DNA of 63,479 nucleotides, counting the filler, from Eubacteriales bacterium (lineage in GTDB: Bacteria > Bacillota > Clostridia > Oscillospirales > CAG-382): NCBI GenBank assembly GCA_045636665.1. It is 10 parts of 10 records of this genome, joined end to end, with 100 filler letters (N's around TTAATTAATTAA, not from the genome) between each part and the next. Parts side by side here need not be neighbours in the genome. Positions count along the whole stretch, not along the records: positions 36,530 to 42,348 come from JAZTXY010000051.1; positions 42,449 to 45,517 come from JAZTXY010000052.1; 8 more parts are not named here. One strand, given 5' to 3'. Of the stretch, positions 39,001 to 45,000 are shown piece after piece. How positions within the stretch are numbered: position 1 is the stretch's first letter; the number at the start of each line of letters is the position of its first letter. Position numbers: made by a program.

Positions 39001-42000
39001 GAAGGGCATTTCAACGACCCAAAGGAAGTTGTAACCGCTTCTTTCGATATTAAGACGGTTTGCCGCTTCAACACGGAGCTGACCGAGCTGAGAAAGCAGA
39101 CGGTTGTTGTCGCTGTCGGCAAGAATAAGCAGAATATCGCCTTTTTCGCAGTTTGCCGCTTCGAAAATAGCGTTAAGCTCCGATTCGGTCATGTGCTTTA
39201 AGAAGGAGCCGCTGTCGGTATCGGCGCGCTTGACCCAAGCCAAGCCCTTTGCGCCGCAGCCCTTTGCGTATTCGCCCAATTTATCGATATCCTTACGCGA
39301 AAGCTTTTCGGCATAGCCCTTAAGATTAAGCGCACGCACGCTGCCGCCGTTTTCGATAGCCGAAGCAAACACGGGGAAGCCGCAGCCGTTAAGAGCATCG
39401 GTAAGATTGATGATTTCCATACCGAAGCGAAGGTCGGGCTTGTCCGAGCCGAAGCGTTCCATACATTCGCGGTAGGTATATCTGGGAAGCGGAGTGGGAA
39501 TTTCCACGTCCATACAGTCCTTGAAGATGTGGCTTATAAGGCCTTCGACCATATTAAGAACGTCGTCGGTATCGACAAACGACATTTCCATATCGATCTG
39601 AGTAAATTCGGGCTGACGGTCTGCGCGGAGGTCTTCATCGCGGAAGCAACGCGCGATTTGGAAATATTTATCAAAGCCCGCAACCATCGAAAGCTGCTTG
39701 TAAAGCTGGGGAGATTGAGGAAGCGCATAGAAGCTTCCCTTGTGCACGCGCGAGGGAACGAGATAGTCACGCGCTCCTTCGGGGGTGGATTTTATAAGGA
39801 TAGGAGTTTCGATTTCGATAAAGCCGTTATCGCAAAGATAGTCGCGCACCGATTTGGTAACCTTTGCACGGAACATAATGTTGTTTTGAAGAACGGGACG
39901 GCGAAGGTCAAGATATCTGTGGGTAACGCGCAATTCCTCGTTGGTTTTGCAATCGTCGGTAATATCGAAGGGAGGAGTTTCGCTTTCGCCGAGAATACGC
40001 ACGTTGGAAACGAAAATTTCGATATTGCCGGTGGGAATATCGGGGTTTTTGCTCGAGCGTTCACGAACAACGCCGGTTGCCGAAACAACGTATTCACTCT
40101 TTAACAAAAGTCCCTTTTCAAAAATTGCCTTTTCGGTGGTTTCGTCGAAGGCGAGCTGAACGATACCGCTTCTGTCACGAAGGTCGATAAAGATAAGACT
40201 GCCAAGGTCGCGTGATTTCTTCACCCAACCCATAACGCAAACAGTTTCGCCGATATTAGATTCTCTTAAATCGCCGCAGTAATGTGTGCGGCGTTCATTG
40301 CCAAGTAATTCTGCCATATCAATGCCTCAATATATTTTAAAGATATAATTTATCAGCCGTTTATTGCTTCGGTGATGTTTTCAACGGTCAAGCCGACCTT
40401 AACTCTTTCGCCGCCGCGCATATCACGCAATTCGGCAACGCCTTCGGCAATTTCGTTATCGCCGACGACAAGAACAAATCTTGCGCCTGCCTTATCGGCA
40501 TATTTCATTTGCGCCTTCAGGCTTCTGCCGCAAACGTCGGTTTCGGCGGAAATGCCGCTTTCACGCAATTTCTGCGCAAGAACGAAGGAAGCCTTGGAAG
40601 CGCCCTCTCCCAACGGTGCGATATAAATATCACAGCCGTTTTCGAGGTTGGGAATCAAATCTTCATCCTTAAGCGCTTGGATAAGACGGGTTATACCCAT
40701 ACCGAATCCGACCGCAGGCAATTCGGGACCGCCGATAGACGCCAAAAGTCCGTCGTATCTGCCGCCGCCGCAAACTGTGCTTTGCGCGCCGATGGAATCG
40801 ACCGTAAATTCAAAAACAGTGCCCGTATAGTAATCGAGTCCGCGAACGATAGAGGGGTCGACGGTATATTCAACACCGCATTCGTCAAGCAGGCTCTTTA
40901 ATTTTTCAAAGTGAGTGTTACAGCCGTCGCAAAGATGCTCGAGCGTTTTCGGTGCGTTCTTTGCAATGCCCGAGCAAACAGGGCTCTTGCAGTCGAGCAC
41001 ACGAAGGGGATTTTTTTGCAATCTTTCACGGCAGGTATCGCAAAGCTCGGCTTCATACTGCGAGAAGTAATTAAGAAGCGCCGATCTGTAGGAGGGACGG
41101 CATTCGGGACAGCCGATGGAATTGATGCGAAGCGTTACCTTTGTAAGTCCAAGCTTTTTGAACAAGCCGTTCGCAAGTAAAATGACCTGCGCATCCGCCT
41201 CGGGCGAGGAGCTTCCGTAAAGCTCGGTGCCGAACTGCCAAAATTCACGGCTTCTGCCCGCTTGGGGCTTTTCACGGCGGAAGAAGTTGGAAAGGTAAAA
41301 CAGCTTAAGCGGCATTGCGCCTGCATAAAGACCGTTTTCGATAACCGAGCGCGCAACGCCTGCGGTACCTTCGGGGCGGAGCGAAAGACTGCTTCCGTCC
41401 TTATCGATGAAGGTATACATTTCCTTGCCGACAACGTCGGTCGTATCGCCGACACCGCGACAGAAAAGCTCGGTCGCTTCAAAGGTCGGCATTCTTATTT
41501 CCGAAAAGCCGTAAATTTTTGCGGTTTCACGCACCGCGTCTTCGATATACTGCCAAACGCCGATGTCCGAAGGGAGAATATCGAGCGTTCCTTTGGGTTT
41601 TTGAATTCTGTTCATAATTAAAATGCTTTTGCTCCGTTACGTATATTTGCACGCCAATCCAAATCGCCTCGGTCAAGCGCAAGAATAAGAACCTCCGCAG
41701 TCGCAACGTTGGTCGCAACCGGAACGGTATATTTGTCGCAAAGCTTAACAAGGTTCATTTCGGTTTCGGTGTATTCTGTGTCATTATTGGTATCACGCAA
41801 GAGGATAAGAATATCTACCTCGTCATAAGCGATTTTGGAAGCGATTTGTTCGATTCCCCCGTGCGAGCCCGAAAGCATTTTTTCGATCTGAAGACCGGTT
41901 GCTTCCGAGATATATTTGCCGGTTATTGCGGTAGAGCAGATGTTGTGTCTTGAAAGTATTCCGCAATATGCAATGCAGAATTCGGTAATAAGCTCTTTCT

Positions 42001-45000
42001 TCTTATCGTTGGCAATAATCGCAATGTTCATTATTCGTCCTCCCTTTTTTGTACTCGCAGTACGATTCCTTTATAAGAACTGCGTTTTTTCGGTGATTCG
42101 CATCCGTTGAACAGCTTAATGCGTTCACCCTTGATTCTTAAAGCGATGTTGTAAAACGCCGCTTCCCATTTACTTGCTTTTTTGTTTTGCTCGCCCATAA
42201 ACGAAAGCTCAGCCGCTTCTTGCGATGCCGAAAGCCGTTCGCAATAGGGGACAACCCCCAAAAGCCGCACGGACGAGCGATTGATTATATCCAAAATGTC
42301 GGGCAGCTTTTTGCTCTCCGCAAAGCTTGCTCGGTATCCGTTTACCACNNNNNNNNNNNNNNNNNNNNNNNNNNNNNNNNNNNNNNNNNNNNTTAATTAA
42401 TTAANNNNNNNNNNNNNNNNNNNNNNNNNNNNNNNNNNNNNNNNNNNNTTTTGTTTTGTATTTTGTAAAAAAATATGATTGTAGGGGCGATTCACGAATC
42501 GCCCGCAGGTAACATATAAGGAAAACACAACATCAATGCACAAAACGCAATCGTTACGAACAGGCTTCCCCTTGGGGGGAAGCTGTCAGTGCGGTAAAAT
42601 AGCACTGACTGATGAGGGGTTCGTTAACTTATTTAAAGTAAATATAACGATGCCTCGCGTCTACCCCTCATCCGTCGCGGTAAACCGCGCCACCTTCCCC
42701 CGAGGGGGAAGGCTATTATAACCGTCACGCGCAGTGATATAACGCAACCGTAGGATATAAACGAAACGGGTAAAAATGGCTTCCCCTTGGTATGGGGTCC
42801 CCGAAAACGCTTGTGTTTTTGGGGCATAAGGGAAGCTGTCGCCGTAGGTGACTGATGAGGGGTTTGTTAGTATTTAATGAAAAAACAACACCACTACGTG
42901 GCTACCCCTCATCCGTTATTTTCTGAAGAAAATGCCACCTTCCCACACCCACCCCGAAAATGCTTGCATTTCGTGTCGAGAGCGAAGCGATATTACCTAT
43001 TACTTCATTATTCACTTGACTATCGCAGTTCGTTTTGTTATAATAATTCTGTATAAATATAGGTATACTGTTTGGGAGGAGGTTTTTATATGTTTAAACG
43101 TGTATTTTTGGTCGTTTTGGACAGCGTTGGTATTGGTCACGCGACCGATGCGAGTGATTTCGGTGACGAGGGCGCGCACACCTTAAAGAGCGTTATGACC
43201 GAAAGACCTATTCTTCCAAACCTTACAAGGCTTGGGTTATTTAACATCAAGCGTGCGGAATTGGATGAATTTGCCATTCCCTCACCGATTGGCATTTACG
43301 GCTTTGCCGAGGAAAAGAGCCGCGGCAAGGACACGACCGTCGGACATTGGGAGATTGCCGGTGTTGTTTCGGATTCGCCCCTGCCCACCTACCCGAACGG
43401 ATTCCCCGATGAGGTTATAAGCGCATTTGAGGATGCAAACGGTGTTAAAGCCCTTTGCAATCTTCCCTATTCGGGCACGGAGGTTATTAAGGATTACGGC
43501 GAATTGCATTTAAAGACGGGCAACCCGATTATTTACACCTCGGCGGACAGCGTTTTTCAGATTGCGGCGCACGAGGAGGTTATTCCGCTTGACCGTCTTT
43601 ACGAGATGTGCAAGAGCGCGCGTGAGATTCTTAAGGGCAAGCACGCTGTCGGCAGAGTTATTGCAAGGCCTTTCCTTGGTGAGGCAGGCAATTTTTACCG
43701 CACGGGAAATCGGCACGATTACTCGCTTGAGCCGACGGGCGTTACGATGCTCGACCGATTGAAGGAAAACGGCTTTGACGTTATTTCGGTCGGCAAGATA
43801 AACGATATTTTCGCATCGCGCGGGGTGACCGAAAGCTACCCGACAAAGGGCAACGCAGATGGAGAAGGACGGTTGCTTGAGCTTCAGGAAAAGGATTTTT
43901 GCGGTCTTTGCTTTGTGAATTTGGTCGATTTCGATATGGTTTACGGACACAGAAACGATACCGTGGGCTATGCAAACGCGTTGGCGCAGTTTGACAATAC
44001 TTTAGGCAAATTTATTGACAAAATGCGTGATGACGACCTTATTATCATCACCGCCGACCACGGCTGCGACCCCGGATTTAAAGGCACCGACCACACTCGC
44101 GAAAACGTGCCCTTACTTGCATATTACAAGGGCTGTGACAGCTTTGACGCAGGACGCGTTTACGGCTTTGACTGTATTGCGGATGCGGTTTGCAGAAATT
44201 TTAAAATATAATCATAAATTGGCATTTTAACAAGCAGGAGGTGTTCCATAGGATGAAAATGCAGGATATCATCACGAAAAAGCAATCGGGCAGAGAGCTG
44301 ACCGAGGACGAAATCGACTTTTTTGTAAAGGGTGTTGCCGACGGCAGCATTCCCGATTACCAGATAAGTGCATTTTTAATGGCGGTTTGGTTTCGCGGTA
44401 TGACCGCCGAGGAAACCGGTATTCTTACCGAATGTATGGTTGATTCGGGCGAGATTGATAAGCTCGATTCGATTATCGGAAAGAAGGTCGACAAGCATTC
44501 AACGGGCGGTGTCGGCGACAAGGTGTCGCTTATCGTCGGTCCTATGGTAGCCGCCGCGAATAAAGGAATTTTCGTTCCGAAGATGGCAGGCCGTGGGCTT
44601 GGCTTTACGGGCGGTACGCTTGACAAGCTCGAATCCTGCAAGGGTGTGAACACCGAAATTTCGGCTGAGGAATTCGAAAATATTGTTAAAGAGCTTGGCT
44701 TCTGTATTGCAGGACAAAGCAAACGCCTTGCCCCTGCGGACGGCAAGCTTTCGGCTCTGCGTGACGTTACCGCGACGAGCGATTGCATTCCGCTTATTGC
44801 GGCAAGCGTTATGAGTAAAAAGATTGCTTCGGGCAGTGAGTGTATCGTGCTTGACGTTAAATGCGGAAGCGGTTCGTTTTGCAAAACGCTTCGCGATGCC
44901 GAGGAATTGGCGAGATTGATGGTTCGCATCGGCGCAAAGGCAAAGCGCAAAACCGTTGCTATTATCACCGATATGTCGGCGCCGCTTGGTTGCGCTGTCG

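Follow-up and report, generated by a model that had tools for sequence, protein, structure and literature searches.

Why should a bacterium of the family CAG-382 (Clostridia, Oscillospirales) that lacks enolase maintain a methylglyoxal synthase (MgsA) homolog stripped of its catalytic residues? The question is raised by a gene in the window, by which we mean the whole stretch of 63,479 nucleotides analysed here, and it touches both the function of the protein and the route by which carbon passes the enolase gap. The gene occupies positions 5089-5502 of contig C51 of the genome under study (G000), its start codon overlapping by one base the stop codon of a minD-family ATPase gene that is full-length in relatives (Table 1). 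It is best read as the vertically inherited clostridial mgsA of a minD-mgsA-hisS-aspS cluster.

Table 1. Features of the pseudo-mgsA locus; positions count along the window, and residue numbers given as replaced are those of E. coli MgsA.
Feature	Position	Strand	Basis or remark
MgsA-fold pseudo-enzyme gene, 137 aa	41618..42031	-	ORF, profile and structure model
minD-family ATPase gene, 3' part, truncated by contig end	42031..42348	-	
GGAGG ribosome-binding site, within minD 3' end	42039..42043	-	sequence
hisS	40353..41615	-	begins 2 bases past pseudo-mgsA stop
aspS	38536..40317	-	
Asn8, replaces His19	42008..42010	-	alignment
Ile60, replaces catalytic base Asp71	41852..41854	-	alignment; role from PMC7843640
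Tyr87, replaces His98	41771..41773	-	alignment
N-terminal helix at residues 17-25, with Ala21 and Tyr22 invariant; HPr contact predicted	41957..41983	-	model
Glu113, the same in all 66 rows aligned; HPr Ser46 contact predicted	41693..41695	-	model
Residues 121-127, C-terminal motif, Trp126 invariant; second subunit's share of predicted HPr site	41651..41671	-	model

The motif changes previously described against the solved MgsA 6f2c are borne out by the alignment: AHD has become AND, TGTTG has become TAITG, GGDQQ has become GGIEQ and PHEPD has become YTETE. The Asp of GGDQQ and the His of PHEPD, said to be lost, are indeed missing from every family primary copy (Asp71 and His98 each 0/45); His19 is kept in one of the 45, and among the top homologs His19 and His98 each occur in 0/120. 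The catalytic roles that the survey gave to both residues can now be sourced in part, as a passage of PMC7843640 names Asp71 as the catalytic base but describes His98 as accessory and not critical. By contrast with these losses, the phosphate ligands Lys23 and Thr45 (each 45/45) and Thr48 and Gly66 (each 43/45) are retained, although the pocket drifts at Thr47 (19/45), Ser65 (17/45) and Gly46. The structure model (pLDDT 88.9; TM 0.82 to 6f2c) places the protein within the MGS fold. The earlier statement that no homolog exceeds a curated cut-off holds for TIGR00160 (102 bits against 146.9) and not for NF003559, which the protein passes (100.6 against 84); methylglyoxal synthase is also the label these proteins carry in those databases that name them. 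The literature matches listed included no report of an MgsA that has lost catalysis.

Could the protein still be an enzyme, be it a weak methylglyoxal synthase or one that has gained another reaction, for example the one enolase would catalyse? The intact fold, the partly preserved phosphate pocket, the passed NF003559 cut-off and, in the same passage of PMC7843640, the non-critical standing of His98 can be read in that way. We nevertheless consider it highly improbable: the Asp71 column holds at least eight residues, mostly non-acidic (I, S, A, T, E, L, G and K), the same dead form occurs in enolase-positive genomes, three genomes (L049-L051) carry a separate intact MgsA besides the dead copy, and our genome, at 80% completeness, has no gloA match. 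An MgsA-like gene is nevertheless near-universal, as the survey held, being present in 102/104 family genomes, and the median dN/dS of 0.07 over 68 unsaturated of 120 pairs indicates purifying selection. With Asp71 and His98 gone from 45/45 family copies at a dN/dS of about 0.07, the sequences thus agree with the survey's conserved pseudo-enzyme; almost the whole family appears to lack a working methylglyoxal bypass. Beyond closing that bypass, pseudo-MgsA would contribute nothing to the enolase gap.

The gene neighbourhood offers one candidate for what selection is preserving. Of the 45 primary loci of the family, 43 have minD directly upstream of pseudo-mgsA, the distance being no more than 60 bases in 37 loci and the genes overlapping in 10; neither MinC nor MinE, the partners of MinD in a MinCDE system, was found in five genomes (each 0/5). 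The protein may thus be retained as a partner of the MinD-family ATPase, or else as a phosphate or triose-phosphate sensor, with HPr binding a relic. MGS-fold domains in carbamoyl-phosphate synthetase have a ligand-binding role, and structure comparison places them among the fold relatives of the protein, whose phosphate pocket is in part retained. Both versions seem unlikely to us. In the pooled count minD precedes mgsA in 82/130 loci, Asp71-keeping copies included, so the adjacency may be ancestral gene order; the sensor version must contend with the drift at Thr47 and Ser65, and both with the finding that conservation is highest on the surface modelled to bind HPr.

That site emerged from a model, built from our own alignments, in which a pseudo-MgsA dimer is paired with the HPr of the same genome. 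The complex scored 0.79 against 0.10 for the best of three controls. The score mark is reached by 116/157 solved pairs and 2/215 mismatched pairs, counts that, by the tool's warning, are only roughly valid when, as here, alignments are supplied by the user and one chain is present twice. The mark is also passed by near relatives of true partners, so the score may reflect an ancestral MgsA-HPr pairing, and several Asp71-keeping rows were included in the underlying alignment. The runs agreed on at least 87% of contacts with a partner pLDDT of at least 86. In the model the dimer covers the Ser46 face of HPr and sets Glu113 against Ser46 with an expected error of 0.9 Å, an arrangement that would fit loss of binding upon Ser46 phosphorylation. 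Conservation of the predicted interface is 0.91, compared with 0.77 over the rest of pseudo-MgsA and 0.57 at the former catalytic positions; 5/5000 random position sets match it, the related rows not being independent, and it falls to 0.81 once four variable tail positions are counted. On the HPr side the corresponding values are 0.95 at the interface and 0.75 elsewhere. No PDB entry was common to the MgsA and HPr/Crh matches listed. HPr binding by the dimer is a prediction supported by one model, in which the conserved surface of pseudo-MgsA is the putative HPr/Crh-binding face. This reading of the surface is new; the absence of enolase is a known, published problem.

HPr and its kinase, two components of such a circuit, are kept. 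HPr is present in 41/41 genomes, with Ser46 kept in 29/29 and His15 replaced in 7/29, and HPr kinase (HPrK) occurs in 5/5 genus genomes; hence both an HPr-like partner bearing Ser46 and its kinase are available, as for a Crh-MgsA pair. PTS enzyme I was found in 0/5 genus genomes. Each of the five carries one PEP-utilising enzyme of PPDK size, the single one scanned being PPDK, in agreement, on a smaller sample, with the PPDK frequency reported before. CcpA was above cut-off in 0/52 family genomes; any LacI-type match was confined to 10/52, with 0/18 in the genus, and four queries returned none in our genome. As CcpA and enzyme I were not found, HPrK and pseudo-MgsA are the sole known partners of HPr to have been seen.

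We favor, at a probability of roughly 0.65, a reading in which catalysis was lost in an ancestor shared by a wider clade than this family (the tree used was a quick one), and the protein has been kept as an HPr-binding protein. The dead MgsA would probably serve as a regulator; the best reading makes it a pseudo-enzyme within an HPr circuit that is switched by phosphorylation and descends from the Crh-MgsA pair of Bacillus. In excerpts from the literature on that pair, unphosphorylated Crh binds and inhibits MgsA and Crh-Ser-P cannot (Landmann 2011, via PMC9631020). By analogy, once the catalytic residues had been lost from clostridial mgsA, pseudo-MgsA would bind HPr at low sugar flux, when Ser46 is unphosphorylated, and phosphorylation of Ser46 by HPr kinase would release it. 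Because pseudo-MgsA no longer offers an activity that could be inhibited, the regulatory logic has probably been reversed: the protein may hold or shield HPr, or relay to a third partner whether HPr is phosphorylated.

The enolase gap itself is wider than the genus. Enolase (PF00113) is rare within the genus, as the survey had found (2/61 genomes; 2/23 of high quality; control 14/14), and absent from most of the family, where it is present in 16/104 genomes and 15/81 of high quality, a count including two divergent 1e-50 matches and one below cut-off. A loss peculiar to the genus is refuted by 102/301 order genomes without enolase, and the problem is an already published, open one. Nor is MgsA decay tied to enolase loss: the dead copy is also found in enolase-positive genomes (G008, G066, G094-G097 and G106), and so the two events are independent. 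One further genome, G064, has a divergent 'enolase' without His159, Glu168 and Glu209, which we take to be functional residues, and was excluded from both the enolase-positive and the enolase-negative groups. The family enolases differ in gene neighbourhood, and identity between groups is mostly 53-69%, similar to the 54-64% they show to that of E. coli, which suggests that enolase may have been re-acquired. Since the 11 enolase loci share no neighbourhood, there is no original enolase site to inspect for a replacement, and substitution of the enzyme at its own site was set aside. An enolase-superfamily substitute was likewise rejected, the genome's own dehydratase being DgoD-like and not conserved (one weak match in five genomes).

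To call lower glycolysis broken, as had been proposed, is to overstate the case. PGK is present in our genome, and across the family an intact iPGM occurs in 50/52 genomes, pyruvate kinase in 30/52 and KDPG aldolase, a direct route to pyruvate, in 38/52. Pyruvate kinase in 10/17 genus genomes at 95% completeness or above agrees with the earlier frequency, the threshold being different.

The intact iPGM in 40/41 enolase-negative genomes hints at a hidden step that uses 2-phosphoglycerate. That an unrecognised enzyme carries 2-phosphoglycerate on to PEP or pyruvate is a reasonable proposition at somewhat less than even odds. The iPGM residues invariant in 20 aligned copies are presumably those of the active site, and iPGM and pyruvate kinase occur together in 21/41 enolase-negative genomes. 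Because a PF02595 glycerate kinase is missing from 15 such genomes that do have iPGM, PF02595 glycerate salvage does not explain the mutase, the type of glycerate kinase covered across the family being PF02595 rather than MOFRL. Seven genomes, one of them our own incomplete one, lack both KDPG aldolase and a gene of the serine dehydratase (SDH) family. Against this stands the failure to find a candidate: the DgoD-like dehydratase is not conserved, and the neighbours of iPGM are housekeeping genes only.

Alternatively, and more tentatively, carbon may exit at 3-phosphoglycerate via serine, either to pyruvate through serine dehydratase or to glycine and formate with ATP from formyl-THF synthetase. 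Within the enolase-negative set serC is found in 40/41 genomes, beside serA in the loci read, but it is equally present in 10/10 enolase-positive genomes. The SDH family occurs in 18/41 enolase-negative against 0/10 enolase-positive genomes, kin not being independent; it is nonetheless missing from 23/41, and some matches resemble cysteine desulfidase. GlyA and FolD occur in our genome and Fhs in 5/5, yet our genome has no SerB match, and the route leaves iPGM unexplained. According to excerpts from PMC10521649, E. coli without enolase is rescued by a serine shunt, which the paper nevertheless judges infeasible under fermentation.

A third route, which we regard as doubtful, would draw pyruvate mainly from uronates via KDPG aldolase and PEP from PPDK or PEP carboxykinase, leaving triose carbon for biomass, an idea already put forward for Butyrivibrio (PMC6912079, section 9). 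KDPG aldolase is present in 32/41 enolase-negative genomes, within a uxuA-eda-kdgK cluster (uxuA being truncated at the contig end in our genome), and in the mixed genus g10 it marks 4/4 enolase-negative and 0/5 enolase-positive genomes. However, half of the carbon would still enter as glyceraldehyde 3-phosphate, and the aldolase is missing from 9/41 enolase-negative genomes and present in 5/10 enolase-positive ones. Other candidates were discarded: phosphoketolase and non-oxidative glycolysis (0/5 genomes); a PLP serine/threonine dehydratase, the PALP matches of five genomes falling into CysK, TrpB and ThrC classes (three scanned, the others by score class); and a second CysK adjoining phosphofructokinase, seen in G086 and G090 and not in the other three genomes. 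A glycine reductase exit had no match in five genomes, but the control genomes likewise had none, so that this negative carries little weight. No DUF1015 was found near serC among the scanned neighbours.

It is tempting to speculate that carbon-state signalling has been rewired across many gut Clostridia that have neither PTS enzyme I nor CcpA. HPrK would phosphorylate a Crh-like HPr, the dead MgsA would be the main reader of that HPr and would pass the signal to the translationally coupled MinD-family ATPase, itself without MinC or MinE, to set division or sporulation, and in the same cells an enzyme unrelated to enolase would carry glycolysis past 2-phosphoglycerate; we think this improbable as a whole. 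The practical consequences are more immediate. Since databases name these proteins methylglyoxal synthase, counts of methylglyoxal producers in the gut microbiome that do not check for Asp71 go wrong in this clade, as do metabolic models that, without that check, bypass a missing enolase via mgsA. The HPr model would offer a dead enzyme a job, and HPr kinase a possible output where the textbook outputs were not found. The enolase problem is sharpened to a gap across a third of the sampled order with the mutase before it intact.

Taken together, pseudo-MgsA resembles the methylglyoxal synthases of TIGR00160, NF003559 and PF02142 in length, fold and part of the phosphate pocket, and passes NF003559; it differs from them in the loss of Asp71, His98 and His19, and fails TIGR00160. 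With the B. subtilis MgsA-Crh pair it shares the fold (TM 0.82 to 6f2c), Ala21, Tyr22 and Glu113 are common to both MgsA proteins, and its partner HPr, like Crh, can do without His15 and retains Ser46. The N-terminal helix, in which cross-links have reportedly been seen in the Bacillus pair (MgsA-Crh), forms part of the modelled site. That pair is treated by Dickmanns 2018, as related in part of bioRxiv 10.1101/2024.02.22.581430. Unlike B. subtilis MgsA, pseudo-MgsA has no catalytic base, so that there is no MgsA activity here for HPr to inhibit, and CcpA (0/52) and enzyme I (0/5) were not found. Excerpts from studies of Butyrivibrio, Prevotella/Segatella and Endomicrobia (PMC11026938, PMC11187502, PMC6118326, PMC11257099 and bioRxiv 10.64898/2026.06.02.729653) describe enolase-negative organisms in which glycolysis is otherwise largely complete and the route unresolved. 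Glycolysis is likewise largely complete in the present family but, unlike in those gut anaerobes, the loss extends to the greater part of the family and to a third of the order genomes sampled.

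The window is made of several contigs joined together. The one bearing the mgsA-like gene measures 5.8 kb and belongs to a genome that is 80% complete; the gene order there is minD (cut), mgsA-like, hisS and aspS. The mgsA-like start codon is overlapped by the minD stop, and hisS starts 2 bases past the mgsA-like stop. Homologs are named methylglyoxal synthase in the databases that give names, as is every one of 11 solved-structure matches, and the fold model (pLDDT 88.9) has a TM-score of 0.82 to 6f2c. The four motif changes named by the survey are visible in the alignment with that structure; its statement that no curated cut-off is passed stands for TIGR00160, which the protein fails, and falls for NF003559, which it passes. 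A phosphopentomutase and a pyrimidine-nucleoside phosphorylase occupy the following contig, with no link to this one.

Coordinates of the pseudo-MgsA gene and of other loci observed
Feature	Source	Coordinates	Strand
mgsA-like ORF, 137 aa	window	41618-42031	-
Phosphopentomutase and pyrimidine-nucleoside phosphorylase	window	43072-45517	
Glycosyltransferase to glycerate kinase cluster	L075, own genome	1414-5904	
Galactonate-dehydratase-like gene	L084, own genome	3199-4356	
Enolase-like protein and cluster	L213, relative G064	2499-7699	
Second divergent MgsA type	L048, relative G048	1858-2268	

According to PMC7843640, the catalytic base of MgsA is Asp71 (E. coli numbering), His19 stabilises O3, His98 is accessory, and phosphate is held by the TGTTG motif with a lysine, a serine and a glycine. 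Among 45 primary family copies (30 best matches and 15 chosen across genera, from 102 genomes with a match; five second copies were tallied separately), Asp71 and His98 are kept in none and His19 in one. Lys23 and Thr45 are retained throughout and Thr48 and Gly66 in 43 each; Thr47 (19/45) and Ser65 (17/45) are drifting. Median dN/dS for 16 genus copies is 0.07 over 68 unsaturated pairs (52 of 120 were saturated, and one further copy with a codon deletion was omitted). Together, the missing catalytic residues and this ratio bear out the survey's finding that the gene is a conserved pseudo-enzyme, rather than a decaying pseudogene. None of the papers listed by the literature searches describes a catalytically dead MgsA.

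Asp71 is present in 13 and His98 in eight of the best 80 of 592 confirmed named loci, mostly in Ruminococcus-like records. In a quick tree of 126 rows by 130 columns, with 52 of 123 inner branches unresolved, Asp71 is absent from 104 of the 105 rows on one branch (SH-aLRT 99). The dead form also occurs in enolase-positive relatives (G008, G066, G094-G097, G106), and its decay is thus unlinked to enolase loss. Four intact MgsA copies were seen: G075, G078 and G110 each have one as a second copy, and the other comes from a 2.5 kb contig of G124. A second divergent type, found on a 3.4 kb contig of G048 and as database proteins P0122-P0241 (labelled Lachnospiraceae/Eubacterium in several sources), retains His19, TGTT and mostly Asp71 (114/120), with the substitutions Asp20>Asn, Asp91>Asn and His98>Lys.

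Enolase is indeed rare in the genus, as the survey held, being present in 2/61 genomes; it occurs in 16/104 family genomes and 199/301 sampled order genomes (all at least 95% complete except our own). The gap is already a known open problem, described for gut anaerobes in PMC11026938, PMC11187502, PMC6118326, PMC11257099, PMC6912079 and bioRxiv 10.64898/2026.06.02.729653; the present analysis widens and sharpens it. A methylglyoxal shunt, even if present, would cost ATP, as stated in PMC11026938. Because their neighbourhoods differ and most are no nearer to each other than to E. coli enolase, the family enolases may have been re-acquired. The enolase-like protein of G064 lacks His159, Glu168 and Glu209 and sits in a catabolic cluster, after a DUF4147/MOFRL protein and before aldehyde dehydrogenase-like and sugar kinase-like ORFs; G063 has a similarly scoring match.

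Our genome encodes Pgi, Pfk, Fba, Tpi, part of Gap, Pgk and iPGM, together with SerC-SerA, GlyA, FolD, Fhs, glycerate kinase, a D-lactate dehydrogenase-like protein, PFL, PFOR, PEP carboxykinase and acetate kinase. The family comparison used 52 genomes, our own and 51 with a completeness of at least 95%: 10 have a true enolase and 41 none, G064 being set aside. A hidden enzyme using 2-phosphoglycerate has odds just short of even; iPGM is found in 40/41 enolase-negative versus 9/10 positive genomes, and its active-site residues are unchanged across 20 copies. Carbon exit through serine is somewhat improbable: it works in E. coli but is doubted under fermentation (PMC10521649). Here serC occurs in 40/41 negative versus 10/10 positive genomes and the SDH family in 18/41 versus 0/10. 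Glycerate kinase is present in 26/41 versus 10/10 and PK in 22/41 versus 7/10. A uronate-centred metabolism is unlikely; KDPG aldolase is present in 32/41 versus 5/10. Seven genomes have neither KDPG aldolase nor the SDH family. No single known bypass accounts for all surveyed genomes, and the three routes may coexist.

Several further loci were observed. In genus g10 (G098-G108), 9/9 genomes at least 95% complete have either KDPG aldolase or enolase, never both. In enolase-negative G086 and G090 (L274, L275), a second CysK-like gene, a possible beta-eliminase lead, lies directly 3' of phosphofructokinase, PPi-dependent in one and ATP-dependent in the other. A cluster of GT2 glycosyltransferase, GFO/IDH/MocA oxidoreductase, xylose-isomerase-like TIM barrel and glycerate kinase, possibly for glycosyl-glycerate metabolism, is conserved between our genome and L230 of G053. 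The galactonate-dehydratase-like gene stands immediately 5' of dnaG-rpoD and was not found in five relatives.

The best-conserved residues of the pseudo-MgsA lie in the N-terminal helix (Ala21, Tyr22), at Ala110 and Glu113, and at the C-terminal Gly122-Leu124-Trp126. When two copies were modelled with the HPr of this genome, the complex scored 0.79, against 0.10 for the best of three controls, with at least 87% contact agreement between runs and partner pLDDT of at least 86; the score mark is reached by 116/157 solved complexes and 2/215 mismatched pairs, counts only rough for this model. To the predicted interface one copy contributes residues 17-25 and 109-120 and the second copy residues 121-134; they contact HPr 20-28 and 40-54, and Glu113 is placed on Ser46. 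The 19 interface positions up to 127 have a conservation of 0.91 versus 0.77 for the rest, reached by 5/5000 random sets; including four tail positions gives 0.81, and the figure for the four positions that were once catalytic is 0.57. Since no PDB entry is common to the MgsA and HPr/Crh lists among the matches listed, the model is unlikely to be reproducing a complex already solved. Ancestral MgsA-HPr pairing may still account for the pass, because close cousins of true partners pass too.

HPr was found in 41/41 family genomes, with Ser46 kept in 29/29 aligned copies and His15 replaced in seven, and HPr kinase in 5/5. A PEP-utiliser search of five genomes gave a single match in each. Every match has the size of a PPDK and the one that was scanned is a PPDK, so the search did not find enzyme I. 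CcpA passed the cut-off in 0/52 family genomes. Any LacI-type match occurs in 10/52 of these and 0/18 of the genus, with 9/14 controls positive; four such queries gave zero matches in our genome. That 42/52, including all 18 of the genus, are without any LacI-family match is unusual among sugar-using Firmicutes. MinD is the obvious candidate for the output of a pseudo-MgsA/HPr circuit: minD lies upstream in 43/45 family loci, with a gap within 60 bases in 37, and MinC and MinE were each found in 0/5 genomes.

Taken as modelled, the pseudo-MgsA is predicted to bind HPr in cells in which neither enzyme I nor CcpA was found, and the dead enzyme would now have a concrete, testable proposed job. 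A phosphorylated Ser46 would have its phosphate opposite Glu113, an arrangement that would fit a phospho-switch. In Bacillus, as PMC9631020 reports, Crh without phosphate binds MgsA and inhibits it, whereas Crh-Ser-P is unable to do so; a preprint (bioRxiv 10.1101/2024.02.22.581430) only speculates on the same behaviour for a clostridial HPr.
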